A stretch of DNA of 64,000 nt, taken from positions 260 through 64,259 of IMG/VR virus record IMGVR_UViG_3300030104_002782. One strand, given 5' to 3'. The notes beneath the pieces were generated by a model, which was not told the origin of the DNA, made no database searches, and saw only the letters and a program-made list of their open reading frames with translations. This document shows positions 1 to 64,000 of this stretch, in pieces. The first letter of the stretch is position 1; every line of letters starts with the position of its first letter. This DNA is from a virus (Duplodnaviria; Caudoviricetes). The translations under genes were made by a program, and so were the position numbers.

Positions 1-80
1 TGGTTTACCACTTCTATACTTCCATCTAGAAGTCTATGGACTTCTAATTCTGCTTCGCAGTAAGGGCATCTAATTGTCAT
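1..80 (-). CDS. Small CPxC-containing protein, truncated by the window edge
   Basis: Manual translation from ATG at 80 gives MTIRCPYCEAELEVHRLLDGSIEVVN...; preceded by a GGAGATGA RBS; not in the ORF track. Confidence 0.6.
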   Translation of the reverse strand, partial: MTIRCPYCEAELEVHRLLDGSIEVVN

Positions 81-102
81 TCTATCATCTCCTAAACTTC
101 GT

Positions 103-678
103 TTATTTCCTCATAGGTTTTGCATTACTATAATCAGAATCGTAGATTCTAATTACTCTCTTCGAGTATTCTTCATCAGATAAATCTGATGCTTCGATGT
201 TAGAATCCCACTCGCCTTCTGTAAGAAGGCAAGAATCATCGTCACCGATAGCATCGTAAGATGAATACAATTCACCAGCCAGAACCTTTAGGTTCTGTTC
301 ATCCCATTGGTTGAAATCCCATAGGATTTCCTCAAAGTCTACATTAGCAAGGTCAAAGACCTTGTCAAAGTATTCTCCCCAATCTTGGCCGAAGGCCAAG
401 AAGAACCCTAATTCTAGACCTGTAAGGTCTATACCGAACCTTTCAATCCATTCCTCCAAATCTTCGTAGAAGATTTGATACAATTTTACCGGCATCTCGA
501 AGTCATAAATGACTTCGTTAATCTTGGCTATCATATAGCCAATCAATTCTTCTCTATCAGAGCCGAAGGCTCTGACTCTATTCAAGTCCATAGACTTGAA
601 TACCACTTGGTATTCTATATCCCAATCATCTAAAGATGATTGCGATAATTTGTCATACAAATTATTTTCTATTTCCAT
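103..678 (-). CDS. Highly acidic hypothetical protein
   Basis: 191-aa ORF with GGAGAG RBS; about 46 D/E versus about 16 K/R by manual count. Confidence 0.75.
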   Translation of the reverse strand: MEIENNLYDKLSQSSLDDWDIEYQVVFKSMDLNRVRAFGSDREELIGYMIAKINEVIYDFEMPVKLYQIFYEDLEEWIERFGIDLTGLELGFFLAFGQDWGEYFDKVFDLANVDFEEILWDFNQWDEQNLKVLAGELYSSYDAIGDDDSCLLTEGEWDSNIEASDLSDEEYSKRVIRIYDSDYSNAKPMRK

Positions 679-710
679 TTCAATTCTCTCCTAAATCTCC
701 GATTTACTTT

Positions 711-1667
711 TCATTGGTTGAAGAATACATTTTGCTTCGCAAAGTTTCGATGCCATTCAGTAGTTGCTTCGCAAATATCAACTAGACTGTAACTTAAAGA
801 AATCTCGATTTCTTTACCGACATGGTCTTTCAAGGTAAAACCTTGACTAAACTTGTAGACAGAGTCTACAAGAAATGCTCTGCATCCTTGGAAATCTTCG
901 ATTGTAGCCCAATCTTCGTCTTCATCGAAGATGTCTTCTAGATATTTCCATGTTTCATAGAAACATGCTTCAGCATCACCGTCAAACTGTAAGCCGAAGG
1001 CTTGAAGGAAATCTGCTATTACTAAATTGTTCCAATTTAGACCCAATCCTTCTAGGATTGAACGAAGGTCAAGAAGGAAAGCCGAAGGCTTTAGATAGCC
1101 GTAGAAATCTCCGATTTCGTAGTCATATTTTAGAAGGCTAGAGCCTTCTTTGATTCGGTAAGGAAGTATACCAACGGAGTTGGTATGTTCTTTGATTCTC
1201 TCGACTAAGTCGAGTAAATCTTCCGGAGGAAGACACATCTTCTTGACTAGGTCAAGAAGTCTTTGTTCTTCTTTCTTGGCTTCCAAGACTCTGTCTTGTC
1301 CTTCCAGAATATACTCAAAGATGCTGACGAAGTCAGAGTCATCCAATTCTTCAAATCTGTCTTCGACAGCATTCAACCAAAAATCGGAGATTTTTGCGGA
1401 AATATCAACAATTTTTCTACCTTCTCCGAAGGTTATCCTCAAAGCCTTATGAAAGGCTTCGAGAGTTGGATAGAACAAATCAACATCTCCGATGTTGAAT
1501 ACCCTCTTTAGAGGGTAGTTGGGAATGATAAACTCGTTTATCATCTCCTCTTTGCTCTTAGCCAAGAAGTCTAGGACTTCTGGGGTTGGGTCGGTTTCTG
1601 CCTCTCCTTGGAGAGGGGTTTTGCTATGGTTTATACTATCTTTTATCATTAGTTTAACCTCCTTCAC
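711..1667 (-). CDS. Acidic hypothetical protein
   Basis: 318-aa ORF; GGAGGT RBS before the second Met; C-terminal half weakly resembles 103..678. Confidence 0.75.
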   Translation of the reverse strand: MKEVKLMIKDSINHSKTPLQGEAETDPTPEVLDFLAKSKEEMINEFIIPNYPLKRVFNIGDVDLFYPTLEAFHKALRITFGEGRKIVDISAKISDFWLNAVEDRFEELDDSDFVSIFEYILEGQDRVLEAKKEEQRLLDLVKKMCLPPEDLLDLVERIKEHTNSVGILPYRIKEGSSLLKYDYEIGDFYGYLKPSAFLLDLRSILEGLGLNWNNLVIADFLQAFGLQFDGDAEACFYETWKYLEDIFDEDEDWATIEDFQGCRAFLVDSVYKFSQGFTLKDHVGKEIEISLSYSLVDICEATTEWHRNFAKQNVFFNQ

Positions 1668-2370
1668 TTCGTTCAGGAGTTAAACAATGTAAAAGGTAGT
1701 AAACCTAGTATAAATCTACGATTTATACTGCCGGAACCAAATTATGCAATATGGTATACTGATACCATATTGCTTAATTCGCAAAAGATATTTTTTTGCC
1801 GAAAACCGATTGACTCGCAGCGTACACATGGCTCTCTTTCAAAGAGAGGTGGCCTTAATTCTTCCTCAAAACTTCTCCCTTACAGGGAGAAACTTTAGCA
1901 AAAACCAAACATCTTGCGAGGATGTGAAATCTAATCTGCGATTAGATTTTGCTAAAAGAAGAGATAGGATTCCCTAATTCCTATCTCTACTTTAACGCGA
2001 GAAGTTGGTTTTCCATTTAAGTGTAACTAGTTACACTTACTTTGAATGGTCGGCAAATCTTCCTTAATACGGTAATTTATCGGCTTTTAGTGCTGTTTTA
2101 TGTTGTCTTTAGACAACATACTTTCGGACTATGTCAAGATAACTTTTGTATTAGTTTTCTTTCCGGATTTTGGCTCTAGAGCCAACTATCACAAAGAGAA
2201 CATTATTTTCCTAGGAAAATAATTCTGATGGAGAAAAGCCGATTTATTGTGCGAACTAATCTCAAACGAGTTTGAGATTAGTTTCATATAATAAATAGCA
2301 AAAATTGTTAGAGAAAGTTGGCCCTTTATTAACAAAACGGAAAGGACTAGTCCTTTCCGGTCTAACTAAT

Positions 2371-2416
2371 AAAAAAAAAAAAGGGCCACTGACCCCCTTT
2401 AGGGGGTCAGTGGCCC
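2371..2416 (-). terminator. GC-rich hairpin followed by a T12 tract
   Basis: 16-bp stem GGGCCACTGACCCCCT/AGGGGGTCAGTGGCCC adjacent to A12 on the plus strand, just downstream of ORF 2439..2567. Confidence 0.7.
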
Positions 2417-2438
2417 AAAAGATTTGATTCCGAAGGAA

Positions 2439-2567
2439 TCAATATCCTTGTGCTTTAGCACAAGGAGGGCAGAGTCTTTCTGGGACTCCATCGTCTCCGA
2501 AGGAGACGACTACATCTTGGTTGTTCGTTGTTTTTTGGCAATTCCATTGACAGCATTTTTCTGACAT
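2439..2567 (-). CDS. 42-aa Cys-rich microprotein, possible zinc finger
   Basis: Manual translation MSEKCCQWNCQKTTNNQDVVVSFGDDGVPERLCPPCAKAQGY; AT-rich box about 20 nt upstream and terminator downstream. Confidence 0.55.
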   Translation of the reverse strand: MSEKCCQWNCQKTTNNQDVVVSFGDDGVPERLCPPCAKAQGY

Positions 2568-2648
2568 CAAAGGGTACTACGATGGTCTAATACTTAGAGT
2601 TTTGGTGTTTATGCTTCGTTGTTCCGTAGGAACAATGAAGCAAGGGGT

Positions 2649-2990
2649 TTTAGGGCCCCCTAAATCTCCGGATTTCCAGAACCGGACACCCTTATATCTT
2701 CGATATAAGGGTGATTTTCGGCAAACCAAAATAATTCTGTTACCCTATCTTCGATAGGGTAACAGGTAAAGGCTGGGATTTTCGATTTTTAGGGCCCCCT
2801 AAATCTTCTTCTCCTTTAGGAGGAGAAGAAGATTCTCAAGTCTATACCCCTATCTTCGATAGGGGTATAGGTTGAAAATCGGCAACTTTTTTTTTGAACC
2901 CCGTAGGGGTTCAATGAGGAGATTTAGGGCAACCTAAAACTTCAAATCGCAAAAATAATTCTGAGAGTAAACTCTCAGAATTATTTCAAG
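2649..2990. repeat. Three degenerate tandem units of about 137 bp
   Basis: TTTAGGGCCCCCTAAATCT at 2649 and 2788, TTTAGGGCAACCTAAAA at 2923; shared CGGCAA, AAAATAATTCTG and TATC-TTC-GATA hairpins. Confidence 0.75.
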
Positions 2991-3115
2991 CGTAACTAAC
3001 TAGAGGTAATTATACCATCTCCGATGGTATAATTACCGTAAAAAATCCTACAAAAATCCGAGAGTCGGTGAGCCGACTCTCGCCCAGCACCACGAGCAAT
3101 TTTTTAATTTTTTTT

Positions 3116-4618
3116 TCAGAAAAAAGTGACATACTTGCCACTACTCTTTCTAGTGGGCCTACCACCTTTCTGACTAGGCTTACCCCATTTATTCATATCT
3201 ACAGATGAACCCATCATGGGGATGTCTCCGGTTACATTCTTAAATTGGTCTACTGCATGAGCAAGGGCCATGACTATATCATTGTGCTTACCTTTGTCTA
3301 CTATGTCGCCATTTTTCCAAGCATGAGATTCTAATTCTAGCAAAAGTACACTGACTATCTTGCGAGTCTCATCATCTCCGTAAGGGAAAATAATTCTACC
3401 CTGCTCAAACCATGTCCTTAGTCTTGTCATTAGACCTTGCTTCAAAGTCTTATTGCTAACTTTGCTTTGCTTTACATTAACAGTAAGTCCCTTCTGTTTA
3501 AGTAGACTTTCGTAGAGATGTTGAAATCCAGCAGACTCGAATGCAAACAAAGGTTTGCTGTATTTATCATTCCATACTGCTATCTCATCTATCTGTTTAG
3601 CAGGGGGGAAATCGTTTTTTCGCCAGATGTTTACTAATCGCAAATTACCATCTTCGTCTTTTCGCATACAGACCATAACAGAGTAGTCTTGTCCTATACC
3701 GTGACTTGGGTCAAAACCTATGACATAGTCATTGTCATGTACTTTTTTATTTTCAAGTATACTGTGCATATCTAGATTCTTGCGAGTAAGTGTAGTGGGG
3801 AATACAGCAGAGTCATCATCTACTACTTTACAGAGATATTCTTGCGTAAATGCTAATTCGCCTATTGCATCTCTCTGCTCTAACAGAAACTCAATAGGTC
3901 TTTCTTCGGGCCATAGACATGTAGGTTCTACATTATCTGGGTCGCTGCGCCACTCATCATAATTTAAGATTGAACCTTTCACCCAAGTCTGCCACTTCTT
4001 ATTACTTAGCATCTCGGTATGATACAAATCATTCATTGACATAGGAGTGCCTACACAATATATCGAAGTACCGGGGGATAGCATAGGTGTTAGTTTTTTG
4101 CGAAACCATTGTTGAACATAATCATATGACATATCGTTCTGGTCATCTAGTACATCGTCTAATATAATAGCAGCCGGATGTTCTCCACGAATACCGCTAC
4201 CTACAGATGTTGCTTTTATCCATGAGCCATTTGTTAGATGCAATTCTAACTTGTTGCCTTTCTTTGGGTCAAGCATACGAGATAACTCTGGATGAGTTTT
4301 CAAATCTTGACGAATCTCTTCAAGACGATTAGCAGCCAAATCTTTGTTGCTTGAAAATAACCACATCTTTAGAGGCTTACCACGCCATCTTTCAAAAAGT
4401 AACATATGCAAGGCTTTAATTCTAAGAGTAGTAGATTTACTATGGTCTCTTGGTGCTATGATGCAGACTCTATGAACCTGTGCGTCACCTCTTTCACCAT
4501 ATAAGTCTAGCCATTCACCTATATGCTTGCCCCAATTATAACCTAGCCATTCATAGAAATGTCTGACATCATACTTAGACCTCTCAAGATGGAGGGCGGT
4601 CATAATTCTTGACGACAT
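3116..4618 (-). CDS. terL: Terminase large subunit
   Basis: Walker A-like APRDHSKST, Walker B IILDD, GTP coupling motif, RNase H-like IGFDPS and HNDIVMALAHA. Confidence 0.93.
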   Translation of the reverse strand: MSSRIMTALHLERSKYDVRHFYEWLGYNWGKHIGEWLDLYGERGDAQVHRVCIIAPRDHSKSTTLRIKALHMLLFERWRGKPLKMWLFSSNKDLAANRLEEIRQDLKTHPELSRMLDPKKGNKLELHLTNGSWIKATSVGSGIRGEHPAAIILDDVLDDQNDMSYDYVQQWFRKKLTPMLSPGTSIYCVGTPMSMNDLYHTEMLSNKKWQTWVKGSILNYDEWRSDPDNVEPTCLWPEERPIEFLLEQRDAIGELAFTQEYLCKVVDDDSAVFPTTLTRKNLDMHSILENKKVHDNDYVIGFDPSHGIGQDYSVMVCMRKDEDGNLRLVNIWRKNDFPPAKQIDEIAVWNDKYSKPLFAFESAGFQHLYESLLKQKGLTVNVKQSKVSNKTLKQGLMTRLRTWFEQGRIIFPYGDDETRKIVSVLLLELESHAWKNGDIVDKGKHNDIVMALAHAVDQFKNVTGDIPMMGSSVDMNKWGKPSQKGGRPTRKSSGKYVTFF

Positions 4619-4830
4619 TATTCCTCCTCCGTATTAAAGAAAAGTGGGAGACCTACCCACTCCGCTATACCAAGAGCAAGTTGCTCTGCTTCTGACCTAT
4701 CTATTACAATACCTACAATATACTCTTCACTAAAGATATTAAGAGCAATCAAGTTATCCGTCAATTCTGTTAATTGAGCGTCTTTTTCTTTAGAAGTCCA
4801 AATCTTCGCCATCTTCTTCATCTTCTCCAT
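4618..4830 (-). CDS. Small hypothetical protein
   Basis: ORF translationally coupled between the phosphoesterase and terL; true start probably MAKIW. Confidence 0.55.
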   Translation of the reverse strand: MEKMKKMAKIWTSKEKDAQLTELTDNLIALNIFSEEYIVGIVIDRSEAEQLALGIAEWVGLPLFFNTEEE

Positions 4831-6022
4831 TGAGTGCTTTCAGTGTCCTAAGACCATGCCTCAAATCAGAGAATGCTTGAATCTCTCTTGTGTGAGGGGA
4901 GAGGATAACAACAGGGCAAGTTGGTCTTTCACGAGGGAAACCGCACATCTCACCGAAGGTATCTACAATCTTATATGCGCCCGGTCTAACAGCCCAACGC
5001 TCAAGACTATGTTTAGTAAAGGGTGAAACAAGAGGCGTATGGTGATGTCCTACTACTCCTATATCGAAGTCTGCTTCGCCATCATCCCACATCTTCTTGA
5101 CAACACGACTTGGGTCTATCTGCGAATTACCTCTGCGCTTGTGTCTTACAGATATATGGTATGGCTGGTCGCCAATCCATAATCTGATGTTTAATTCGTG
5201 AGCATGGTAAAGTACCGACCTTTCTTCTGCAAGTCTCTTTAGAGGGTCATAGTCTGTCATGCTAGCAGTCCATAAATCGTGATTACCTGCAACAATAGCC
5301 ATAAGGGATGTTGGAGTCATGTCTAAGTAATGCTCACATAGTTTCCATTGAACAGAAGGGGGAATAGGTGCTTTCATAGCAGGTCTTGGTTTGTCTACAA
5401 TGAAGTTATCAATGTAGTCACCTGCATGTATAATAAAACAATTCTCTGTTCTTTCAACCATCTCCGTATCTAGACGAAGTCTTTCGTGGTCGCAGAAAGG
5501 ATTACCTATATGCTGGTCGCTTGCGAATGCTATTGCGATATATTTACCTTTATCAGCATTTACTCTAATATCAGCCCATCTATTATGCTCAACATTCTGA
5601 ATAGCAACTTTAGACTTTTCTTCTATTGCAGCCCATAAGTCGTCACCGCTACCAGCCGCTTTCTTTAGATGCTCTATTACAAAGTGTGGTTTTTCGGTTC
5701 TAGTAATAGCCCCATTCTCATATGCTTGTCTAACACGGTTTCGCCACGCTTCTACACTTATACCATTGTCTCTGCGGTATAACATACGGGCAAGAGACAT
5801 GACAGAGCCATCCCAGACCTTCGGAATAGCACTATTGTACCTCTCTTCTACATCTGGAAACAATTTAGGGTTATTTTCTTTCATTTTAGCAATAAATTGC
5901 GCCCAACCGCTATAAGAATGGTCTGGGTACTCATTTGCTAGCCATCTAGCATAGTGTGTAACTACACCATTGTATTTATCTAAGTTTTCTACGACAATCG
6001 CCTTGCGTTCCTCGGTTCGCAT
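4790..6022 (-). CDS. Calcineurin-like metallophosphoesterase with N-terminal helical domain
   Basis: Motifs SDQH, GDYID, GNHD, RH and GHHH; start placed at MRTEE behind a TTTAATAA box. Confidence 0.85.
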   Translation of the reverse strand: MRTEERKAIVVENLDKYNGVVTHYARWLANEYPDHSYSGWAQFIAKMKENNPKLFPDVEERYNSAIPKVWDGSVMSLARMLYRRDNGISVEAWRNRVRQAYENGAITRTEKPHFVIEHLKKAAGSGDDLWAAIEEKSKVAIQNVEHNRWADIRVNADKGKYIAIAFASDQHIGNPFCDHERLRLDTEMVERTENCFIIHAGDYIDNFIVDKPRPAMKAPIPPSVQWKLCEHYLDMTPTSLMAIVAGNHDLWTASMTDYDPLKRLAEERSVLYHAHELNIRLWIGDQPYHISVRHKRRGNSQIDPSRVVKKMWDDGEADFDIGVVGHHHTPLVSPFTKHSLERWAVRPGAYKIVDTFGEMCGFPRERPTCPVVILSPHTREIQAFSDLRHGLRTLKALNGEDEEDGEDLDF

Positions 6023-6091
6023 ACCAATACTACACACTTTTTACTTATTAAACCCTTCTCTAACTAATTATTTCTATTGTATTGAAAGATT

Positions 6092-12801: not shown

Positions 12802-12813
12802 AGGTGATGTTAA

Positions 12814-13056
12814 TTGTCAGATAGAGCAGAGTTTATGAAGCGGTATGCCGCAGATATACTAGGCAGAGACTTAACTGATGATGAGGCGGATTTGGTTTCG
12901 CAAGAAACCAACCGTCGCATCGTCAGAGACTTATGTGGTACTTTTAAGGTTTCAAAACCTAAGAAGTCAAAAGCAAAACCTAAGATTAGTGTAGATAAAG
13001 AATTGGAGAGTGTAATAAATGAAATCGAAAGCAGCAGTAGCAAAGGCTCTGAATGA
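12814..13056 (+). CDS. Hypothetical protein
   Basis: AGGTGA RBS; within the operon. Confidence 0.55.
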   Translation: MSDRAEFMKRYAADILGRDLTDDEADLVSQETNRRIVRDLCGTFKVSKPKKSKAKPKISVDKELESVINEIESSSSKGSE

Positions 13057-13456
13057 TGCTGGAATCCCTCTTCCTAAAGAGGATTCTTACGATGCCATGA
13101 TGCACCGTCTAAATACTTGGTCTGCCGGACATGGGTATTTGTTTCGCAGAATGAAGTCAAGATTTTATGCACAACAGAAATTACCTGCTGAGATTCCTCT
13201 AGGTACAGTCATTTGGGTTCCAAATAGTAAGTTTGCTAGAGATTTAATTAGGACAGGTGCTATGTTCCCTATGGGTCGTGCGCCTTATGACGACAAGTAT
13301 ACTATGATTGATGTCCCTAAGACAGAAGATTATGTAGAGCCTGTGGTAGAAAAACCTAAGCCTAAACCTAAAGCAAAGCCTAAAAAGACAAGTAAACCTA
13401 AGAAGAATAGTAAGAAGGTGAAGTCAGATGGCGGTAACGACAAGTCAGATTCGTGA
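13019..13456 (+). CDS. Hypothetical protein with Lys/Pro-rich C-terminus
   Basis: GGAG RBS; KPKPKPKAK tail. Confidence 0.65.
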   Translation: MKSKAAVAKALNDAGIPLPKEDSYDAMMHRLNTWSAGHGYLFRRMKSRFYAQQKLPAEIPLGTVIWVPNSKFARDLIRTGAMFPMGRAPYDDKYTMIDVPKTEDYVEPVVEKPKPKPKAKPKKTSKPKKNSKKVKSDGGNDKSDS

Positions 13457-13817
13457 TTTGCTAAACAGACCGAGAGGACTGAATGACGGCACTGTTACTG
13501 AATATATTACTATTCGTACTGCACAGATAAATAAACAAGTAAGGGCTTCTGGTCTTTATGGTATTTCTTCAGATAGTGCTATTACAGATACTCTAAAAGA
13601 ATCTGCTATCAAAATGATGGTATGTGTAGATTGTTTGCGAGTTATGATTGATACAATTCCTTCGTATGTCCCAGAGAATGAGCAGAGACAGCAAGACATA
13701 CGATTAACAGCACAATTAAGGTCTTTTGAAAGACAGGCGCAAAGCCTATTAGACCAAGTAAGCGAAGCGGCTGGCTCTGCATTCTTTGTTGATTCTACAT
13801 CAACAGGACAGAGTTAG
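13428..13817 (+). CDS. Putative head completion/adaptor protein
   Basis: Size, helical pattern and position after the capsid gene; AGGTGA RBS. Confidence 0.55.
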   Translation: MAVTTSQIRDLLNRPRGLNDGTVTEYITIRTAQINKQVRASGLYGISSDSAITDTLKESAIKMMVCVDCLRVMIDTIPSYVPENEQRQQDIRLTAQLRSFERQAQSLLDQVSEAAGSAFFVDSTSTGQS

Positions 13818-13826
13818 GTGTAATAT

Positions 13827-51155: not shown

Positions 51156-51665
51156 TCATTCAATCACCTCTACGCCTCGCCACCAACTAGGGGTTTTTCT
51201 CGGCCCTACCCATTTAGCAAATGTCTTGGTGTGATAGTATTCTCGGTATGCTTTTACCGCATCTTCGTCTTTGTACTCCTCTGGCATAGCCTGTGCGAAT
51301 GGCGTTCTATCACCCTCTGGCAAGTATTCGTCAGCCATACTAGCCATATGAGTAAGGGGCCATAGGCAAGCATGTTTGTGACCGTAGCGATAATCAAATT
51401 GCTGGGCTAGGGTAAAAGCATGTCTAGCAAGCCATAAGAAGTTAGCCTTATTTTCTTGAGTCCAACGAGTACAGGGGTGATGGGGGTAGCCGCCCTTGTA
51501 TGGCGTACCATGAAGGGTCAAAGGCATATCTTTGTCGGTTGCACCGTGAAATCGCAAAGCAGATGCCATCATCTGCGCTGACTCTACAATCATCTTAGGG
51601 AGATGCTTGTCGCACACCATTTTAGCCGCTTCGATAGGACAGTCGGATAATGCGAATATATTCAT
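51156..51665 (-). CDS. Pyrimidine-dimer DNA glycosylase/endonuclease V-like protein
   Basis: MNIF......A...CDKH..KM..E..QM, HPC..W, QAMP, AYR.YY. Confidence 0.8.
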   Translation of the reverse strand: MNIFALSDCPIEAAKMVCDKHLPKMIVESAQMMASALRFHGATDKDMPLTLHGTPYKGGYPHHPCTRWTQENKANFLWLARHAFTLAQQFDYRYGHKHACLWPLTHMASMADEYLPEGDRTPFAQAMPEEYKDEDAVKAYREYYHTKTFAKWVGPRKTPSWWRGVEVIE

Positions 51666-55239: not shown

Positions 55240-57752
55240 GGGTATGCCTCCTGTAGATGTGCGACTCCTTCTTTAATCGTCTCGATGGTCTTATCTAGCA
55301 TTTTCAGAGCCTCTACGCTTTTACCAATCGCAAGTTGCGTTCTAGTAATCTCTAAGACATCTATGATGTCCTCTAGTACACTTACTTGCATAGCGACCAT
55401 GTTGTCTAGCATTTCTTTCACTTCATCCATTATTTTTTCTTCGTTCATTTTCATTCCTCCTCTTCACAATAACATGCGCTCATAAATAGCCCATTTAGGT
55501 GTGAGTAATCTCCGGTGAAACACTCACAAGTGTTACACCAATTACCTTCGGTCTCCAATTCGTCAAGCCATTCTGCTAGTCCCATCTCATACATGAGTGG
55601 GTCTACGGCCTTGAAAACTACCGAAGGAGACCTTGCTACGCCAAAGATATTAATATCTTGGTAGCAACCGTCTAGCAAATCATCGTAAGCCTCGTATACT
55701 GCGTAACTGTAACTCATACATTCAACTCCTTGTCGTCATCGTCATTATGAAATGGGTTTAGAAGTCTAAGGACTTCTTTTTGAGTTTTCACTTTCTTTAG
55801 TTGGTCTGCGATTATACTGTGTATAATACTTAGCGTAGTCATCCTGTTAGGCTCGTCTACAAAGTCTAGCATCACATCTCCGTTCTCAAGTATGTCGCAC
55901 ATACTTTTCAAAATCTGTTCATATTGTTCAATTGGCATATTCATCATTCCTCTTCTGTTCGGTTCTTGTCCTCTATAGGGGGGCCGCCACTACTTGAAGT
56001 TTTTCGTTTGACCCAGACCATCTCGCCTGTGTCTCGCATCTGTATAGCGTCTACCGTATGTTGGAGTGTCATATGCAGACCTATGCGACCATCATGTCGC
56101 ACCATCTGTCTGTGTAGGACAGGAACCCATGTCCCGTCTCGCGTCTCTAGCATATCAAACACAATCATGCGAACCTCTCCATAGCCCAAGAGACCCCGAA
56201 GGGGGCTACTAACATCATTAATATGCTAAAGTATAGAATTGTTAAAAAGGTCATTTGCGAATCACTCCAAAGGATGTGCAATATCTTTGTCTCCGAGAAC
56301 CCATCGCAGAGATTTTACAACGCCCTGTAGGGCTTTGTAATTTCTCATATGGTGCATACGCTCGGCCTTCTTGCATGTCTGTAGAGCAAGCAAGTGTCTG
56401 TTCTGCTTGCGCTCTGCTCTATCGAGCATAGTCTCTATGTCAGACCAACTTCTCTCATAAGAGAAGTGTTCAGAATCTTGATGGTCGTTCATTCTATACC
56501 CTCTCCTAGTGCGCCTAGTATGTCATCATGTAGAGCCATGAAATTGTCGTACAATTTCTGACCTGTGCCTTTGATGCCGAAGTATTTCTTGACATCTGTG
56601 ACTTTCCAATGCCTGTGGGGTTTTATCGGTCTTGGGCCGGTGCAATACAAGGACAGGTCTCTCTTTGAGACTATTAGGTTCCAAATGGCTCTCCCCATAG
56701 GGGAACCATTGACGGTCATAACTTCGCCACCGTTTGCGATTATTTCTGCTTCTTGCCTCAATTCCTCCATGAATGGAGAATCCATACTGTAACTCATTCT
56801 AAATCAACTCCTCTTTGTCTACTACGATACCACGCAGGGTACTAGGAAATGGTCTGCGAATGAATTGCCACAATTCATGCCACTCGCCATCCCATGCGTC
56901 TCTCTGGTGTAGCACTTCACCTGTGTCTCCGTGTGTGACTGTAAGACAACCTTCGGTTAAATCAATTCGCAAAACTGCTGAACCTTTTTCCTTCATATTA
57001 TCTCCTCCTTTCAATTATATTGACTACTTCGACAGAAGTAAGCCACCCTTCGGGGTCGTTAGACCAATCAACGGGAGGCGTAATGCACATGACTTCTAAC
57101 AAGCCTTGCGGAGAGCCGTAGCCATTGGCAACAACTGAAAACTGTTCGCCATCATCCCTCTCTACATGTATCTGCATAGGGGAGAGCCTATGCACATATG
57201 AGACGCATTTGGATTGTTTCAGCATAGATATAGCCTCTTTGAGATGGTTTTTCTTCATCATTCATCACCTCCGGTGATTAGGTCGCCCAATTCCTTTGCG
57301 ACAAGTTTCTGAACCTCTGCTATTGACAAAGGCTTAGTGCCTTTGCTAGACCTGCTATTGTATGAGCGAGGCTTGAGTGAAGGTAGACCTATAGGTCTAG
57401 ATGCCGTAGTCCTGTTTCGCCTAAGTAATCTGCTAGGTCTCCTATCTGCTATGTATGCTCTAGGTCTAGGAGTGTAGCCGTTCTTGCTACGCTTGTGAGC
57501 ATTGATTTTATCCCATAGTTTGTCGTTCTCCTCCTCATCATAATGAGGAACCCATGCAAGGGAAACTGTGCCAAATGGTACTTTCTTCATGTGTATACAT
57601 CTCTCTAGGTGGTCTCTGTAGACGGCCACCTTTGTATATCCCTGTGCATTGAATCGCACCTTGGCTATGCCAAGGTATTCAAATCTCTCTTTGTCGTCGT
57701 AGTCGTATTTTTCTTTCATTGTTTCACTTCCTTCATCGGTCATGTTTCTCAT
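55236..57752 (-). CDS. Run of about nine small accessory ORFs of unknown function
   Basis: Consecutive minus-strand ORFs, mostly with ATGA overlaps and GGAG RBSs. Confidence 0.55.
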
Positions 57753-57776
57753 CTCCTATAGGGGGGCTTCCTGTAT

Positions 57777-58583
57777 TTAATTCAATCGTATTGTTTGAGG
57801 GCTAGAATCTTCTTTGATTTTTGAATCAAAGTATTGCGCCCATGATTCCGTTTTCTCCATCTCTGCGTATTCATCATCCATGCGCTTCTCCGCACAGCGC
57901 ATCCTCACGGTCTGCCACATAAGGGCAGGTAGGTCAATCGTGACAAGTCTCCACGATTTTTTCCTGTTCGACCTAAACAACCATGCTTCTTTTCTCTCTT
58001 CCTCTGGAAGAGTTGCGATTAGGGAATCGTAGAAATCTTTGTTGAGTGGGTCTTTCTGAATAGTTTTACTTATGTAAGAATCTGGGAAATACTTTTGCGT
58101 ATGGTCTATGAGCAAGTGCATGAAGTCGTTGAGGAAATCAATACAGGTATCAGAATCCCAGCCGAAGCCCGCCCTCCTTCTTATGTGATTTGATGATTGT
58201 TGCATTCGTGCTAAATCGCAGTAGTGCGTCTTGAGCGCAGGGCTTTCTTGCATCATAAACAGACATTGAAATCTTGTGTCCTCTAAGATACATCTTAGAG
58301 AATCGAAAGCATCATGGAACATTTCAGTAGTCCATCCTTTACTATAGTAAGTCTCCTTCATGTATTCGTAGGCCATACCTACAACTCTGATGTCAAAGCC
58401 GAGATTTACAAGATTAGCAATCATGCGTGTATTCCTTGTATCATATACAGGCATGAGTAAATCGTGATAATTATCCCATTCATCCGGATGGTGGAAATAG
58501 CCCTTCCATCCTAGGCGAGTCCACTCACAGGAACCTTTGCCTTCGTAGCCCATAGTGCGACATTTTTCACATTCTCTTGTCAT
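57777..58583 (-). CDS. Hypothetical protein
   Basis: 268-aa ORF with GAGGTG RBS. Confidence 0.65.
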   Translation of the reverse strand: MTRECEKCRTMGYEGKGSCEWTRLGWKGYFHHPDEWDNYHDLLMPVYDTRNTRMIANLVNLGFDIRVVGMAYEYMKETYYSKGWTTEMFHDAFDSLRCILEDTRFQCLFMMQESPALKTHYCDLARMQQSSNHIRRRAGFGWDSDTCIDFLNDFMHLLIDHTQKYFPDSYISKTIQKDPLNKDFYDSLIATLPEEERKEAWLFRSNRKKSWRLVTIDLPALMWQTVRMRCAEKRMDDEYAEMEKTESWAQYFDSKIKEDSSPQTIRLN

Positions 58584-58749
58584 TCATAGCACCTCTTTCA
58601 AATTATTCGGATTATTTTCTGAAACCCTCGGATTATTTTCAGAATAACTCAATTCCTCCCATTATGTATGCGACTGCGAGTATAGGTGATACGGGTAGCA
58701 TGACTATGAGCATAGGGCCGAAAGCCCATGTAGGTACTCGGACTCTCAC

Positions 58750-59462
58750 TCATACCACCTCATCATTCGCAAAGACTTCAAGCATGTGTCTGAAGGTTTC
58801 CGTAGGAAACATGTTTGCGATTCTTCTACCTTCGGTAGTCAAAAATTGGTCTATGCTCATGTAGGTCTCCTCTAGAGGAGTGCCGATTAGGTCAAGAATG
58901 AAATTAAACGCATCCTTCGGAGGAGTTGTGTATTCCTGTCGGAAGGTTTCTACGAAACCGACGACATCGTGAGGATGCTGATTTAGGATTCTAACCATAC
59001 CCTCTTCTGTGAAGAGATGGTCGAGTTTATCCATCCATGCTTGCTCTTGTCTACGACTAGGGTCGTATCTGCCGCCTCCATGTCCCATGTTACTCATGCC
59101 TCCACCCCCATAGGTGTCATGCTAGGAATCGTGATTTCCAATTGCGATTCGTCTAATTCCCAATGCTCAAGGTACGCTTGACCTGCTCGGTTAAGTGCCA
59201 TGATGCAAGCCCTTGTATCATCAGCACATAGTAGACCATCGTCATGTATCTCGCAACTACCCATCCACCAGACCTGTAAGGTCTCGATGAAGTCACTGAA
59301 AGGTACTTTCAGTCTAAGACCGTTTCCTAGGAAACCGACATCATGGGCCATTTGCGAATAAGTAGTTGCTAAAGCAACTGCTTGTTCTGTTCGTGCTATC
59401 ATTTCTGCTAAATCTTCGATTTTCATTTCTGCTTTACATATGTGTTCGTCTGTCATGTTCAC
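58750..59462 (-). CDS. Two coupled hypothetical proteins (58750..59097 and 59094..59462)
   Basis: ATGA overlap and GGAGG RBS. Confidence 0.55.
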
Positions 59463-59613
59463 TCATCCTCCTGTATAGAATCCAAAGAATCCAAAATCAT
59501 TTGGAAAAGGTATTCGTCATCCACAAATCTATTTCTGAAATCGCCCAAAGAGCGACCTGTCTTTTCTTCCCACTCATTGACTATAGTCAATTTCCATTCG
59601 TGATATTTCATGT

Positions 59614-60564
59614 TCACTCATCCTCCCCTGTCCACTTTGCTAGTGCTTGCTTAACATCTTCGATGCCAGCCTTGATTGCCCCTGCTACAGAATCTTGGCC
59701 TGTACCTGTTCTCATTACATGAGCCTTGTCTAGACCGATACATTTTGCGACTTCTTTACCTTGACTTGGGTCAAGGTCTATTGCTGAACCTAGACCTGTA
59801 CCGGCTCTCCCATGAGCCGCCCACATACCGAATAAGCCGGTTCTAAAGAACCATGCAGAGCCAGCACTAGCCGCTATTGCCTCATTCAGACCTTCGTCAG
59901 CATCTTTGATGCGTACTGCCGCTAGAGTATTCGTAGTACCGTTTACGGCACTACGCAAACAGCCTCTTGAGTAGGCATAGGCCCAGACTTCTACAGCGAA
60001 GCCAGCCTGTGAGAGTAGGTCTGCTGCTGCTAGTGCGACTGCTGTCCTAGCAAATATGACATCGGCATCAGTCATGCAGTTAGCCCCCGTAGGGACTACA
60101 AGTGCTACGGCTTCTACAGGGGCCGATGATTTGCGAATTGTCCTACGGAACATTGAGTCGCCATTTAGTAGGCGTGTAGCATTCACACGACCTCGGCTAT
60201 CCGACCACTTGAGTTTACGCTTCAATTGACTTAGGTCAATGGAGTCCACTAGGTCGGACATCTTGTCACGAGTTTTTGCGATTGCTTTGTGGTCGTTTTC
60301 GACATAGTCGCCAAGACGAGCCGCTACATCTCTACGAGATGTGACTTGACCTTTTAGGTCGGGGCGACCTATCCAATTCAAATCGCAACTACCATCATGT
60401 AGAGGGTCATAACCCTCAAAATCGCTAGGCTTGAGTGAATTGACATAGTCGCCAGCATCAGCAGGGGTGTCCGAGATGGTGAAATTGCACGAGAGAGCAT
60501 CAGAGGTATGATGCCCTATGCGAGTCCCTAACTCGTATGATGTTACCTCGGTAACAGACATCAA
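59614..60564 (-). CDS. Partner of the MoxR-like ATPase (divergent VWA-like)
   Basis: G.VN..R.L.G...FR motif, then a Rossmann-like VALVV...L...GF.VEVW; coupled to the ATPase. Confidence 0.6.
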   Translation of the reverse strand: MMSVTEVTSYELGTRIGHHTSDALSCNFTISDTPADAGDYVNSLKPSDFEGYDPLHDGSCDLNWIGRPDLKGQVTSRRDVAARLGDYVENDHKAIAKTRDKMSDLVDSIDLSQLKRKLKWSDSRGRVNATRLLNGDSMFRRTIRKSSAPVEAVALVVPTGANCMTDADVIFARTAVALAAADLLSQAGFAVEVWAYAYSRGCLRSAVNGTTNTLAAVRIKDADEGLNEAIAASAGSAWFFRTGLFGMWAAHGRAGTGLGSAIDLDPSQGKEVAKCIGLDKAHVMRTGTGQDSVAGAIKAGIEDVKQALAKWTGEDE

Positions 60565-61919
60565 GCCGCACCCCCATTTGTAGCGAGAGCATCAGAGATG
60601 AAGGCATCATCGAAGCCTATGGCTTTCAAGTCCTTGCGATTCCAATCGGTGACGGCTTTCTTACGAATCCTTTCCATTTCCCAGCCGAGAACATGCTTTT
60701 GCTTCTTGGCGTTTATCATGTGGCGAGGGCTGATAATGCGGCCTACAAGTCCAGCGTTATCTGCTCTATCACGAAGGTCATGGAAGAAGGAGACGATTTC
60801 ATCGTCACCGATGAGTTGGCGTTCAAATGCTCGGTCATAGCCCCAGCGAATAACTCCGTTAGCGAAGCGATTTAGAGTAGCACCGTCGAGCGTTTCTGCC
60901 GCACTGTATGGGCCACGACCTTTACCTTGTCCCAAGGTGTTAGTTGTAGCAAGGATGAATAAGTCCTCGGACTTCTTGATAACCGTACCATCTGGCATAG
61001 TCCATTCGTCGTTGGCTAAAGCCATGTTAGCCGCAACTGCTGTGCCACCCATTAGACGGTCAAACTCGTCAAAGACGAGGACTCCACCGTCACGGAAAGT
61101 TTCAACTATGTTGGTGATTCTGTGCTTTTCTTCTCCGGAGGAGACATTAGGAATCATTGGCCCTTGTATATCCGAGGGCATCATTTCATTGTGACATGAG
61201 ATAACAGCAAAACGGACAGACTTCGGATTTGCGAATCCACCGGCTTCCGGAGGAAGTGCTTTGAGAGTGTCAAATATCTGTCTAGCGGCATGGGTCTTAC
61301 CAGACCCAGCAGGGCCGGTAGCCATACAATTGATACGAACACGGCCCATGTCAAGTGCTTCATCGAAGCAAGGGTGGACTAGTCCGACCTTGACTTCTTC
61401 AAAGTCACCAAGGGGCTGAACGATAGTGGTACGAGGTAATGCTAGAGCATTTACCTTGTCCTCTAGGGTAGTATCTACTAGGTCAGTAAACTGTCCTAGG
61501 ATATGTGGTGCAACCATATTTGCTAAAGCAAGTCCGGCTGGGTCGGCATCTTTGTTATCGAAGATAACAGGGGTAGGTGTTTTCTTTGGCATTTTCTTAG
61601 TCTCCTTTGGAGTGTCCTTTGGTGGGGTCTTTGGTACTTCTTCACCAGAGGTGAAGGCTTTGAGTTGCGATTCCGACATTGTTGAAACAATGGTATCGAA
61701 AGTTTCTGGGTTTAGGTGATAACCTACATCTACACATGAAGTGTGAATCCAAGTTGCTTTTCTAGATTCCGAAGGAATCTTGACTTGAGCCACAGAGGAT
61801 TTAGGGTGTGTTCCATTAATGGAACCACCACAAACCTTACAGGTTCCGTCGTAGTTTGCATTCTTGGTCTTTAGACCAATTTGTCGTAGTATCTTTGCTT
61901 GTGGGGTTTGCTTGCTCAT
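60561..61919 (-). CDS. MoxR/CobS-like AAA+ ATPase with N-terminal zinc finger
   Basis: GPAGSGKT, FDEFD, ATTNT.G.G, LDGATLNRF, ISPR. Confidence 0.85.
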   Translation of the reverse strand: MSKQTPQAKILRQIGLKTKNANYDGTCKVCGGSINGTHPKSSVAQVKIPSESRKATWIHTSCVDVGYHLNPETFDTIVSTMSESQLKAFTSGEEVPKTPPKDTPKETKKMPKKTPTPVIFDNKDADPAGLALANMVAPHILGQFTDLVDTTLEDKVNALALPRTTIVQPLGDFEEVKVGLVHPCFDEALDMGRVRINCMATGPAGSGKTHAARQIFDTLKALPPEAGGFANPKSVRFAVISCHNEMMPSDIQGPMIPNVSSGEEKHRITNIVETFRDGGVLVFDEFDRLMGGTAVAANMALANDEWTMPDGTVIKKSEDLFILATTNTLGQGKGRGPYSAAETLDGATLNRFANGVIRWGYDRAFERQLIGDDEIVSFFHDLRDRADNAGLVGRIISPRHMINAKKQKHVLGWEMERIRKKAVTDWNRKDLKAIGFDDAFISDALATNGGAA

Positions 61920-62152
61920 TGTTTCATCTCCTTTGGTTGGTTGGTGTTTCTCGGCTCCTTTAGGGGGCTTTCCGTTATAATACCTTCGATGGTGTCGGTA
62001 TCATCCATAGCGTAAAGCATCTGTAAGATTCGGTCTGAATAGGTAGTTGGCACAACTACACCATCCATAACGACTTCGTCAAAGTTAGTCCTCAACAAAT
62101 CGGCCAAATCTGTGACCAAGGGGTTGTTGAAGTAATCTCTCTTATCGTACAT
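61916..62152 (-). CDS. Small hypothetical protein
   Basis: GAGGAG RBS before MYDKRDYF; the longer ORF-track N-terminus runs through hairpin DNA. Confidence 0.55.
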   Translation of the reverse strand: MYDKRDYFNNPLVTDLADLLRTNFDEVVMDGVVVPTTYSDRILQMLYAMDDTDTIEGIITESPLKEPRNTNQPKEMKQ

Positions 62153-63392
62153 GTTTATATTCTCCTCATCAGAGATGGGAGAATTAAACTGTACTTTAAG
62201 AGAGTACAATATACTACTTCGTAGTATAAAATCAGAATCTAAGAATAAGAATGAGAGCATCTTATTCTTAGATTTGCCTATGCACATGTATAGGTATGTG
62301 TGTATAGGAGTATTTTCTAGCCCTTTAGGGCTAGGATTTAGCAAACTATTATTAGCAACCTCCTTTGAAAGGAGGCCATAGGCACATGTATATGTGTCTG
62401 ATTTTCTGCTAATTAAGTCAGAATCGTTCAGCGATTCTGTAACTTTAGCAAACTTGTTTATCATCATGTGTATAACCTATGTATCTTATTAGTGACCGGC
62501 TTGATTTTTTCGGATTATAATCATAAGGGACTAGATTATAATCAGAATGGAACATTCTTGATTATAATCGTAAAATACTATGGTTTTTACTTTGAGAATA
62601 GAGTATACAGATACTCTATTCGCAAAGCCACCTGCATACCTGCGCGCTGGGTCTAGAGACCCCCCAAAGGGCGGAAACCCCCTACGGGGTTTTCCTTCCG
62701 CAGTACAACGATTTTGCGATTTCACCTTTTCCACACATGAGGCGTAGGCCCACATGGGCGAGGGCGCATATACCCGCAAGATGCTTGATTTTCTTAGTTT
62801 TATTTTTACACTCTATCTAAAAAGTATACTTTTTGATATAGTGTACGAGAAGAGGTCTCAAGGTAGTGGGGTAGCCTTTTGAAATTAGAGTGCCGAGAAA
62901 TTGACGACAGACACCATAACTCGGACTTTACTTTTTGCACCGACCTTGATTTAGGGAGACCTAAAAATAACTCGTAGAGTTATTGTTGGCAGGGGTGCGA
63001 ACACACGAGGGCATGTGCGAGGGCATCTGGATTTCTTGCAGAAATCTTCCGGATTTAGAGAATAGTATTCAGTAATACTATTCCCGAAATCTACGCATGT
63101 GGGGGCAAGCGAGCGCACACCTGCTCGTACATGTGTATGTGCATGTACGCATGTGCGAGTGCATGTGTAGGCACATGCCTACGGGTGTACGCATATGTGC
63201 GTACAGGTCTAAAACTATCGAAGATAGTTTCGCAAAAATTAAGGAATAAGTATTACTCAATCTTATTCCTAATTTCAGCGTACAGGGGTACTCGCACACA
63301 CATGCTTGCATATGTGTAGGCACATGTGCGAGCGCACATGTATGTGTAGGTGGTAGAAATCTAACTAGTTAGATTTTCAGTGATTTGAAATT

Positions 63393-63431
63393 AAAAAAAG
63401 CCCCTTAGTGAACCGAGGTTCACTAAGGGGC
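63393..63431 (-). terminator. Hairpin followed by a T7 tract
   Basis: 15-bp stem GCCCCTTAGTGAACC/GGTTCACTAAGGGGC adjacent to A7, downstream of ORF 63476..63697. Confidence 0.65.
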
Positions 63432-63475
63432 AAAGAGTGACTAAAGTCACTAAACTAGAAGTCTATGGTGATGAA

Positions 63476-63697
63476 TCACCATAGAGGCTCAAGGCCAATA
63501 AACTTCATGTATTCATTCAGAAGCAGGGCTTCTGACATCGGCTTTTTCTTGCCTTGGGTTGCTCTGATTGCTTCGGCAATCATAGTGCTAGTTGTCTCCT
63601 TGGTTCCAACAATAGGATTGTTGTTTCCGATGAATCGGTGGATTTTCAACAACCTGTTGGTTAGTCTTTTTTCGGCTCGGCTTTGGGCTTTACTCAT
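63476..63697 (-). CDS. Small basic hypothetical protein
   Basis: GAGGA RBS; largely hairpin-free coding island followed by a terminator. Confidence 0.6.
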   Translation of the reverse strand: MSKAQSRAEKRLTNRLLKIHRFIGNNNPIVGTKETTSTMIAEAIRATQGKKKPMSEALLLNEYMKFIGLEPLW

Positions 63698-64000
63698 CTG
63701 TATTCCTCATTTACAATGGGAATACAGAGAGTATTTTTCGCATACATGCTAAAAACTCTAGGAGTTTTTCGCAAATCAGAATAGGATTCCTTAATTCCTA
63801 TTCTTATTTGGGGCCACCCACATGAGCGCACCTGCCCCCGCTTGATTTTCTTAGTCCTTGGACTACAGAAAATATACGCACGAACCGAAGGTTCTTGCGT
63901 AGGAAAAATAAAGTCAAGACTTTATTTTCGCATGTACGCATACATGCCTGTGTACGCACATGTGCATGTGCGCGCGAGATAAAAAAAAGCCCCACTAGTC

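Follow-up and report, generated by a model that had tools for sequence, protein, structure and literature searches.

A dense belt of short perfect hairpins, kept complementary among related phages, overlies genes and spacers in the early region of a marine phage genome

To define the genetic context, we analyzed a stretch of 64,000 nucleotides (here called the window) from an uncultured marine tailed phage, record IMGVR_UViG_3300030104_002782, which corresponds to a complete 64-kb genome. One end of this genome carries a roughly 12-kb belt of short perfect hairpins, which runs from window position 3115 down to position 1, across the contig junction, and on to about 55,450. The belt covers a 1.45-kb noncoding array, two open reading frames (ORFs) named here B and A, a second noncoding stretch, and the first early genes. 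It comprises the following features:

1..3115, no strand assigned: first half of the belt, a dense core that ends abruptly at the 3' end of the terminase large-subunit gene (3116-4618, minus strand).
103..678, minus strand: ORF A, 191 amino acids, acidic, no known family, with 16 perfect hairpins (about 27.8 per kb).
711..1667, minus strand: ORF B, 318 amino acids from GTG 1667 or, more likely, 312 amino acids from ATG 1649, which follows the Shine-Dalgarno sequence AAGGAGG, with 22 to 23 perfect hairpins.
1668..3115, no strand assigned: noncoding array of about 26 longer perfect hairpins (stems up to 16 bp) between the terminase gene and ORF B.
55450..64000, no strand assigned: second half of the belt, contiguous with window position 1 across the contig junction, where the hairpin excess decays along the minus-strand early genes.

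Neither ORF A nor ORF B could be identified, since no Pfam or PHROG match was found for either. Homologues of ORF A occur only in hairpin-bearing relatives. ORF B has only 11 homologues in the large protein collection searched, its cluster representative is 312 amino acids long, and no PDB sequence match was found below E = 0.3. Its AlphaFold model is all-helical (mean pLDDT, 67) and has no Foldseek match at E ≤ 0.001. Nevertheless, the ORF B reading frame is kept open in relatives, at 350, 499, 507, and 457 amino acids, with conserved motifs; translation itself is inferred, not shown. The phage has no close named relative: blastn of window 1-3200 against the phage collection found nothing, and the best tblastn hit of the terminase was 27% identical. 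A scan of genome contigs with the terminase also found no relative, and the host is not known, although Shine-Dalgarno sites suggest that it is not a Bacteroidota. No Rfam match at gathering score and no tRNA gene by ARAGORN were detected in the whole window.

An earlier note, made from the sequence alone, had listed ten hairpins within ORFs A and B and had described them as the same hairpins, found only in this region. As seen, all ten inverted repeats are perfect, at 383-401, 457-477, 557-575, 581-600, 852-872, 1078-1092, 1219-1233, 1239-1259, 1481-1497, and 1500-1517. The note had also pointed out that GCCGAAGGC recurs four times and gives AFG in the protein three times. We found it at 388, 562, 993, and 1081, with its reverse complement once more in the other 62 kb, at 33709. 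Three copies are read A-F-G (RAFGS, LAFGQ, and QAFGL), and the fourth is read in another frame, KPSAF. The AFG recurrence is partly a conserved protein motif, since FLQAFGL is conserved in homologues. The listed hairpins are only a quarter of those present: positions 103 to 1667 hold 40 perfect hairpins (stem of at least 6, loop of 2 to 5), or 25.6 per kb, against a window mean of 4.06 per kb. Overall, the observation was confirmed and proved larger than described, but two parts of the claim need correction. First, the hairpins are not restricted to this region, since the same density fills the noncoding 1668-3115 and reappears at the other end of the window, with 7, 9, and 18 hairpins per kb in 61-64 kb. 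Second, they are not the same in sequence; the 149 arms are diverse, and only 7 seven-mers are used twice. What they share is form.

Next, to determine whether the protein sequences alone could account for the hairpins, we shuffled synonymous codons 300 times per gene, the comparison that had been put forward in advance as able to overturn the claim. The shuffles gave 1.70 ± 1.23 hairpins (maximum, 6) against 16 observed in ORF A and 2.35 ± 1.51 (maximum, 8) against 23 observed in ORF B, and none of the 300 reached the observed counts; codon-shuffled ORFs thus have about 10 times fewer hairpins. An equal density in other genes would also have counted against the claim, but the terminase, portal, tape-measure, and DNA polymerase genes were at expectation. 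With stems of at least 7, we counted 20, 17, and 19 hairpins in kb 1 to 3 and then 2, 0, and 0, and 45% of the bases of genome 1-3359 lie in perfect hairpins. In the second half of the belt, the excess over synonymous shuffles was +10 to +12 per kb at 62.5-63.3 kb (the two small ORFs), +5 to +13 at 58.75-62.5 kb, +4 to +8 at 55.45-58.6 kb, and about 0 to 3 below that (window coordinates). Thus, the belt has a sharp edge at the terminase gene and fades over about 10 kb along the minus-strand nonstructural arm, through the early and replication genes. The amino acid sequence alone raises the shuffle expectation about 2.5-fold per kb over the terminase gene. However, chance, codon usage, a repeated protein motif, a repeat-element family, or an assembly artifact are refuted as explanations by the shuffles, by the diversity of the arms, and by the presence of the belt in 17 independent contigs and in contigs of sequencing runs from other studies. 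Only four small direct-repeat families were found, all of 2 to 3 copies, including a unit of about 137 nt at 2648, 2787, and 2922, so the hairpins are not copies of one element, as REP, MITE, or Rickettsia RPE sequences are.

To investigate the distribution of the belt, we examined 32 relatives with at least 1 kb downstream of the terminase gene. Of these, 17 have 9 to 22 hairpins in the first kb and 15 have 0 to 1. Whole genomes hold 163 and 128 hairpins in the two belt-bearing genomes, against 13 to 23 in the four others. On the terminase tree, the trait needs 2 changes, and 1 is not excluded, whereas label shuffles average 11, indicating a clade trait. Locus L001, from a related phage, runs uninterrupted across the contig ends. 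The proteins do not dictate the hairpins, since the orthologous AAA-ATPase and DUF7192 genes carry 15 and 20, and 7 and 9, hairpins in belt genomes but 0 to 4 in genomes without the belt, mostly at expectation; one DUF7192 orthologue had 4 against 0.94 expected. Genes private to genomes without the belt are small ORFs with no family.

Covariation of stems in homologs, which had likewise been proposed as a test, was positive in noncoding DNA and inside ORFs. Homologous ORFs keep hairpins through coupled changes, for example, MINEFII/IINELII, ACFYETW/RCFYEAW, and LKPSAF/SMPPAF. In the noncoding array, where hairpins are positionally conserved and covary in the nearest relatives, 45 of 235 pairs changed on both sides, against 27.0 ± 2.8 in shuffles (0 of 500 as high) and 11 to 18 in slid controls. 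Against L001, the 230 stem pairs of the array scored 195 same, 19 changed on both sides, and 12 broken, and several of the broken stems were replaced by a new perfect hairpin. Stems there diverge 11.8%, against 12.7% for unpaired bases, so they change at about the neutral rate but in pairs, and in one stem, 6 adjacent pairs changed together. In a strain about 3% different (sequencing run X8), 4 of 4 stem changes outside one heavily replaced stretch (2421-2441) are compensated (2257/2280, 2967/2972, 2968/2971, and a C plus G double insertion), and one loop changed from GA to its reverse complement, TC. The four sequencing runs examined consist of contigs, which cannot show molecule ends, strand, or expression. 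Loops diverge 26%, against 14% for unpaired bases, but the unpaired class includes constrained codon positions, and loop hypermutation is not needed to explain the difference. The note had inferred a second, position-specific structural code overlying these ORFs; that interpretation was supported, provided that it is extended beyond the two ORFs to a belt with a gradient that includes noncoding DNA, that the hairpins are not taken as copies of one sequence, and that AFG is allowed to be partly a protein motif.

Since the hairpins might act in DNA or in RNA, we then examined their pairing and loops. Stems are 6 to 16 bp long, and only 13 of about 205 hairpins have an internal mismatch followed by at least 3 more pairs, so imperfect stems are not in excess. 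G.T mismatches next to stems number 41 on the plus strand and 35 on the minus strand; clade-wide, the counts are 156 on the sense strand and 184 on the antisense strand. Stems are thus strictly Watson-Crick, with no wobble bias on either strand. The commonest loop length is 3 nt, and 249 of 429 three-base loops (58%) are GNA or its complement, TNC, with a mild strand bias (147 TNC and 102 GNA on the sense strand). The closing pair is 5'C-G3' in 274 of 429 (64%) and G-C in 35. These are DNA mini-hairpin rules, as d(GNA) loops closed by C:G are exceptionally stable in DNA (PMC3201870). In contrast, the RNA-stable GNRA and UNCG tetraloops are not enriched, with 22 of 163 on the sense strand against 14 for their complements.

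An alternative is that the structure acts in RNA, with early transcripts packed with hairpins that protect them from host RNases or Rho, hinder RNA-guided defenses, or pace translation, the DNA symmetry being incidental. The belt coincides with the likely early transcription units on the minus strand, and the mRNA strand of ORF A folds far better than shuffles (z = -9.5, against -12.9 as DNA). In ORFs A and B, 18 of 26 three-base loops coincide with a codon. Over all loop lengths, however, codon phase is only a weak signal (40, 30, and 26 of 96; P = 0.20), and only three-base loops show a preference. A loose scan for intrinsic terminators flagged 20 sites in window 1-3300, but only a few have real T runs and are genuine terminators, for example, 2383-2416, with a T10 tail on the minus strand, and 63400-63431; the hairpins inside the ORFs lack T tails and do not fit a terminator. 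Sigma-70-like promoter matches were not enriched. The absence of wobble tolerance and of a strand asymmetry of G.U, the use of C(GNA)G and its complement in both orientations, and a density as high in untranscribable-looking spacer DNA as in ORFs argue against the RNA reading, which we consider unlikely. Nevertheless, if template switching keeps resetting stems to perfect pairs, the missing G.U pairs do not exclude an RNA role.

Taken together, we tentatively read the belt as a DNA-level palindrome overlay, probably selected. In this view, each unit can snap into a very stable mini-hairpin on either strand when the duplex is unwound, or extrude as a mini-cruciform under negative supercoiling, as the three phage N4 promoter hairpins do. 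The two arms would be kept complementary by one-step templated changes (intrastrand template switching or arm-to-arm conversion) rather than by slow pairs of point mutations. Selection may keep the belt because this part of the genome is most exposed as unwound or single-stranded DNA early in infection, during early transcription, replication start, end resection, or entry; self-folding of both strands would shield it from host machinery that needs single-stranded DNA or would buffer superhelical stress. The analysis itself demonstrates that the hairpins exist, exceed codon shuffles, are specific to position and clade, covary, change in pairs at low divergence, are strand symmetric, and follow DNA-type loop rules, whereas their action at the DNA level, their templated maintenance, their adaptive value, and the particular benefit are our inferences. 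No experiment bears on this phage, and its physical genome ends are not known. A "terminal repeat" in one relative falls inside the structural genes, suggesting circular permutation, so entry of this DNA first is unsupported. GC skew follows gene orientation and does not locate an origin.

A self-perpetuating by-product without function is somewhat less likely in our view, but it is still possible. A lineage-specific peculiarity of replication or repair might raise intrastrand template switching in this region, for example, through long single-stranded exposure near an origin or a resected end, so that chance quasi-palindromes are perfected and kept perfect, as argued for perfect, dynamic coding repeats of hairworm mitochondria (PMC6649704). 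The paired changes at about the neutral rate and the lack of an excess of imperfect stems agree with this. Hairpin positions in coding genes turn over (only 4 of 21 are shared between orthologues of G000 and G003), and the spacing is not periodic but fits random nonoverlapping placement (coefficient of variation, 0.56 to 0.60 against 0.52 to 0.54). The sister clade manages without the belt despite the same gene set. The turnover, the random spacing, and the sister clade fit a nonadaptive process as well as selection. However, density depends on position rather than on how constrained a gene is, since the conserved AAA-ATPase gene carries as many hairpins (+9.6 per kb) as the neighboring orphan ORFs. 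In addition, the noncoding hairpins keep their positions down to 83% terminase identity, the apex is tuned for stability, and the sharp-edged belt has lasted through about 30% terminase divergence. No gene that could cause such a bias was found.

A more speculative reading, which we regard as improbable but of great interest if true, is that this clade of marine phages encodes a defense-evasion device in DNA shape rather than in a protein. Any single-stranded fragment or unwound stretch of the early-exposed roughly 12 kb would fold on itself, which would starve the host of usable CRISPR prespacers or Argonaute guides, make any acquired spacer self-complementary, and soak up the negative supercoiling that R-loop-forming effectors need. 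Spacer acquisition follows a gradient from injected DNA ends, and Cascade depends on supercoiling. This reading would explain the strand symmetry, the strict Watson-Crick pairing, the gradient from a fixed boundary, and the tolerance of amino acid cost.

The belt is a natural case in which a nucleic acid structural requirement visibly overrides and reshapes protein sequences, for example, peptides such as Q-I-F-Y-E-D-L built from complementary codons, and the sister clade, with the same genes without the overlay, provides a built-in control. It also offers unusually clean evidence that both arms of a stem can change in one step in a DNA genome, which bears on the old question of how stems evolve. 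If adaptive, the belt points to a class of phage-host interaction mediated by DNA secondary structure in the early-exposed genome end; if not, it shows how far a mutational bias can drive coding sequence.

The closest analogue is the coding palindromes of hairworm (Nematomorpha) mitochondria (PMC6649704). Both are perfect inverted repeats inside genes, with both arms encoding protein, with binary identity and no excess of imperfect repeats, and with gains and losses that differ between relatives. Both exploit the degeneracy of the genetic code and complementary codons, and arm conversion or template switching is proposed to maintain both. However, the mitochondrial repeats are long (up to 284 bp), fewer, and scattered through the mitochondrial genes, whereas the phage stems are short, with loops of 2 to 4 nt, at up to 25 per kb, in a belt with a sharp edge and a gradient in a double-stranded DNA phage. 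The phage hairpins are equally dense in noncoding DNA and follow DNA mini-hairpin loop rules. The favored codon phase also differs, since position 2 pairs with position 2 in 27 of 47 three-base-loop hairpins of the phage, while position 1 pairs with position 1 in the mitochondria. Our literature searches, which did not extend to supplementary files, found no description of a hairpin-dense early region or of coding mini-palindromes in a phage. The apex itself is that of the d(C-GNA-G) mini-hairpins studied as synthetic oligonucleotides, in which C-G closure of the GNA loop is worth 2 to 3 kcal/mol more than G:C closure (PMC3201870, PMC13037366); here, the motif or its complement caps natural hairpins.

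The early promoter hairpins of phage N4 share the physical form, with stems of 5 to 7 bp, a 3-nt loop with a sheared G:A pair, a location in the early region (in N4, the first-injected one), and enough stability to extrude from duplex DNA at physiological supercoiling (PMC4496689). Promoters of this type, for a virion-carried RNA polymerase that recognizes extruded hairpins, are nevertheless very unlikely here. N4 has three hairpins with a conserved -17 to +1 sequence, while the phage has about 150 on both strands, also inside ORFs, without a shared sequence, and N4 shows only 2 to 4 such hairpins per kb in its first 5 kb, against 17 to 20 here. No RNA polymerase gene was found; the 2363-amino-acid protein and other large proteins have no Pfam, PHROG, or PDB sequence match; that protein was not searched by structure, which leaves the presence of such a polymerase undecided. 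The first-step-transfer region of phage T5 (NC_005859; 10.1101/866236) also has a noncoding stretch of about 1 kb, rich in inverted repeats, in the part of the genome annotated as entering first. By the same count, however, T5 reaches at most 4 hairpins per kb, in kb 10, which holds the injection stop signal, and kb 30 of its first 40 kb, and nothing comparable occurs inside its genes. Finally, quasi-palindrome template-switch mutation can create or repair perfect stems in one event, with multibase compensatory changes and inversion of loops (10.1101/2021.04.15.439925, PMC7202029). It is known as a scattered mutational process, whereas here it would be maintaining a dense, regionally bounded array over long evolutionary time.

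To confirm the hairpins described in the earlier note, the ten inverted repeats that it named were first re-examined in the sequence, and all ten are perfect and lie where the note had placed them. The observation made in the earlier note is confirmed. As the note had also claimed, GCCGAAGGC occurs four times, and three of these copies are read Ala-Phe-Gly. The copies lie between 388 and 1089, and the fourth is read in another frame; the complement occurs once in the rest of the window. A systematic count found 40 perfect hairpins (stem >=6, loop 2-5) in window 103-1667, which is 25.6 per kb, against a window mean of 4.06.

Next, to evaluate whether this density exceeds chance, we carried out the comparison that the note itself had proposed, in which synonymous codons are shuffled within each gene (300 shuffles per gene). 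The two ORFs with the highest density are as follows.
Window 103-678: ORF A, 16 hairpins observed against 1.70+-1.23 in the shuffles (max 6).
Window 711-1667: ORF B, 23 hairpins observed against 2.35+-1.51 in the shuffles (max 8).
By contrast, the terminase, a metallophosphatase-type exonuclease, the portal, the tape-measure protein and the DNA polymerase are at expectation, and a gene-by-gene table gives the same picture. The note's interpretation, a structural code laid over these ORFs, is supported, and neither chance nor codon usage accounts for the hairpins. In addition, ORF A folds far better than dinucleotide shuffles, with z = -12.9 as DNA and -9.5 as RNA. By the same count, the first 40 kb of phages T5 and N4 never exceed 4 hairpins per kb, against 17-20 here. 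The first 5 kb of N4 (positions 1-5000) show a modest rise in perfect hairpins, 2-4 per kb against about 0.8 further on, which is more than its three known promoter hairpins would account for.

To place the hairpins in their genomic context, we examined the single contig of 64,259 bases, of which the window is bases 260-64259. The first 130 bases of that contig recur at its end with one mismatch. The genome encodes a terminase, portal, tape-measure protein, DNA polymerase, clamp loader and nucleases, and it is therefore a complete tailed-phage genome. Its nearest named relatives are very distant, and it is found in marine metagenomes. Hairpins with stems >=7 number 20, 17 and 19 in the first three kilobases, 0-2 per kb through the structural genes, and 7, 9 and 18 in the last three kilobases. 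Since L001, a relative with a 98% identical terminase, runs uninterrupted across the contig ends, the two dense ends form one belt of about 12 kb. The belt has an abrupt edge at the 3' end of the terminase gene, from which it runs through a 1.45-kb non-coding array, ORF B, ORF A, about 1.9 kb of mostly non-coding DNA, and the first minus-strand early genes. The excess over shuffles falls along this path (genome coordinates; window = genome minus 259), being +21 to +25 per kb in ORFs A and B, +5 to +13 at 63.6-59 kb, +4 to +8 at 58.8-55.7 kb, about 0-3 further on, and about 0 in the structural genes. In genome 1-3359, 45% of all bases lie in perfect hairpins. Other features of the belt and of the surrounding genome are as follows.
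Window 3116-6037, minus strand: the terminase large subunit, at the end of a short operon with a 70-aa ORF and an SbcD/Mre11-like metallophosphatase; the operon is divergent from the portal and the other structural genes.
Window 2383-2416: a strong terminator (T10 tail) following this operon.
Window 2648-2941: a degenerate unit of about 137 nt repeated three times, each copy with a TTTAGGG..CCCTAAA hairpin, and with long hairpins sharing the apex ATC-TTC-GAT nearby; this could be an origin, a packaging site or a protein-binding array.
Window 24400-31491, plus strand: a 2363-aa protein downstream of the tape-measure gene, with no Pfam, PHROG or PDB sequence match, conserved at 38-42% identity in all five relatives.
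Window 51156-51704, minus strand, and 54156-54698, minus strand: a pyrimidine-dimer glycosylase-like protein (PF03013) and an HNH endonuclease, in the early arm.
Window 63126-63976 and the first 106 bases of the contig: a cluster of long, perfectly alternating purine-pyrimidine tracts of 32, 21, 17, 19 and 28 nt, plus one of 48 nt at the contig start, built from CACATG and TGTACGCA-like words; they are Z-DNA-prone or operator/iteron-like, and similar tracts occur in the early arms of relatives without the belt.

The hairpins were then compared in form. Stems are 6-8 bp in the ORFs and up to 16 bp in non-coding DNA, and their spacing fits random non-overlapping placement. The arms are diverse and are not copies of one element; the pattern is neither a protein repeat nor a repeat-element family, and it is not a known RNA family. 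A set of N4-type promoters is also very unlikely, as there is no shared sequence and no RNA polymerase gene was found by Pfam, PHROG or PDB sequence matches, although no structural search of the 2363-aa protein was run. In ten belt regions from this clade, which hold 949 hairpins, three-base loops are the commonest class (429 hairpins), and 249 of the 429 are GNA (102) or TNC (147) on the sense strand. The closing pair is 5'C-G3' in 274, T-A in 103, G-C in 35 and A-T in 17, whereas GNRA and UNCG tetraloops are not enriched. The C(GNA)G apex is the known extra-stable DNA mini-hairpin, in which C:G closure is worth 2-3 kcal/mol (PMC3201870).

Since many of these hairpins lie within ORFs, we sought to understand their relation to coding. 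ORFs A and B are real genes by comparative criteria: homologous frames stay open at 350, 499, 507 and 457 aa in diverged relatives and share conserved motifs, and both ORFs have Shine-Dalgarno sites. ORF B probably starts at ATG 1649 (312 aa). The proteins have no known family or fold. Both ORFs are hypervariable, as seen on comparing window 103-1667 with L001 positions 12809-14182, where ORF B is 44% identical in amino acids to its counterpart although the terminases are 98% identical; in two relatives, L023 and L019, the two ORFs are fused into single frames of 499 and 507 aa. In ORFs A and B, 18 of 26 three-base loops coincide with a codon, and the arms are then made of mutually complementary codons, as in Q-I-F-Y-E-D-L and L-L-D-L-V-K-K. 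Over 13 belt ORFs this holds for 27 of 47 three-base-loop hairpins, but over all loop lengths the phase bias is not significant, at 40, 30 and 26 of 96.

To determine how widely the belt is distributed, a terminase search was used, which returned 50 viral contigs, of which 44 were tabulated and 6 partial matches were left out. Of the 44, 32 have at least 1 kb downstream of the terminase gene, and 17 of these show 9-22 hairpins in the first kb whereas 15 show 0-1. The pattern is not an assembly artefact. Whole genomes hold 163 and 128 hairpins in the two belt-bearing genomes, G000 and G003, against 15, 17, 13 and 23 in four syntenic genomes of the same size and GC content, and G003 shows the same sawtooth profile. 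On a terminase tree of 33 rows, the contigs without the belt form one supported clade, and the trait needs 2 changes, although 1 is not excluded. The orthologous AAA-ATPase and DUF7192 genes carry 15 and 20, and 7 and 9, hairpins in belt genomes. In the other genomes they carry 0-4, mostly at expectation, one DUF7192 orthologue having 4 against 0.94 expected. The proteins therefore do not require the hairpins. A DNA methyltransferase at window 37276-38073, minus strand (PF01555, E = 6e-41), is present in both whole genomes with the belt (71% identity in G003) and absent from all four without it; nevertheless, this corresponds to one evolutionary event, so no association can be claimed.

Next, covariation was evaluated in the non-coding array, aligned across six sequences. 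In that alignment, 45 of 235 pairs changed on both sides, whereas shuffles give 27.0+-2.8 (0 of 500 as high) and slid controls give 11-18; the structure was derived from one of the aligned sequences, which favors it somewhat. Against L001, the same array scores 195 pairs unchanged, 19 changed on both sides and 12 broken. Several "broken" stems were replaced by a different perfect hairpin, and in one stem six adjacent pairs changed together. In the 59.9-64.1 kb part, 252 of 273 pairs are unchanged, 5 are doubly changed and 10 are broken, while loops vary freely. Inside ORF B, amino-acid replacements are coupled to synonymous changes that restore pairing. However, between more distant orthologues most coding hairpins sit at different places, with only 4 of 21 shared, and density is conserved more than position.

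Stems in the non-coding array diverge 11.8%, against 12.7% for unpaired bases. In a strain about 3% different (sequencing run X8), 4 of 4 stem changes outside one heavily replaced stretch (2421-2441) are compensated, including a paired C/G insertion. Two hairpin loops, at window 2268-2269 in run X8 and at window 61684-61685 versus L001, differ from their counterparts by exact reverse complementation (GA to TC) with the stems unchanged, which is the footprint expected from hairpin inversion or template switching. Under the theory of compensatory neutral mutation, paired change at near-neutral speed is not expected from independent point mutations in a DNA genome with a low mutation rate. It fits one-step templated change, which is documented to create and repair perfect stems (10.1101/2021.04.15.439925).

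Whether the constraint acts on DNA or on RNA was also considered, and three observations favor the DNA level. First, pairing is strictly Watson-Crick, with no excess of G.U-compatible mismatches on the mRNA strand (41 against 35, 70 against 57, and 156 against 184). Second, the loops follow DNA rules, not RNA rules, and occur in both orientations. Nevertheless, continual templated resetting would also erase G.U pairs, so an RNA role is not excluded, although we consider it unlikely. Third, the hairpins are as dense in spacer DNA as in ORFs.

Overall, we tentatively favor a DNA-level palindrome overlay, maintained by templated arm conversion and retained by selection in the early-exposed part of the genome. 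The main rival, which seems to us somewhat more doubtful, is a non-adaptive, self-perpetuating overlay as proposed for hairworm mitochondria (PMC6649704), and an RNA-level role comes next. The host, the physical genome ends and the transcription pattern are unknown. The sequencing runs examined consist of contigs only. The benefit is inferred only, and it could be shielding of unwound or single-stranded DNA, buffering of supercoils, or evasion of guide-based immunity.

Literature searches, which did not extend to the supplements of papers, found no phage counterpart. The closest known case is the coding palindromes of Nematomorpha mitochondria. These share perfection, turnover and codon complementarity with the phage hairpins, but they differ in scale, density, regional gradient, loop rules and host genome.
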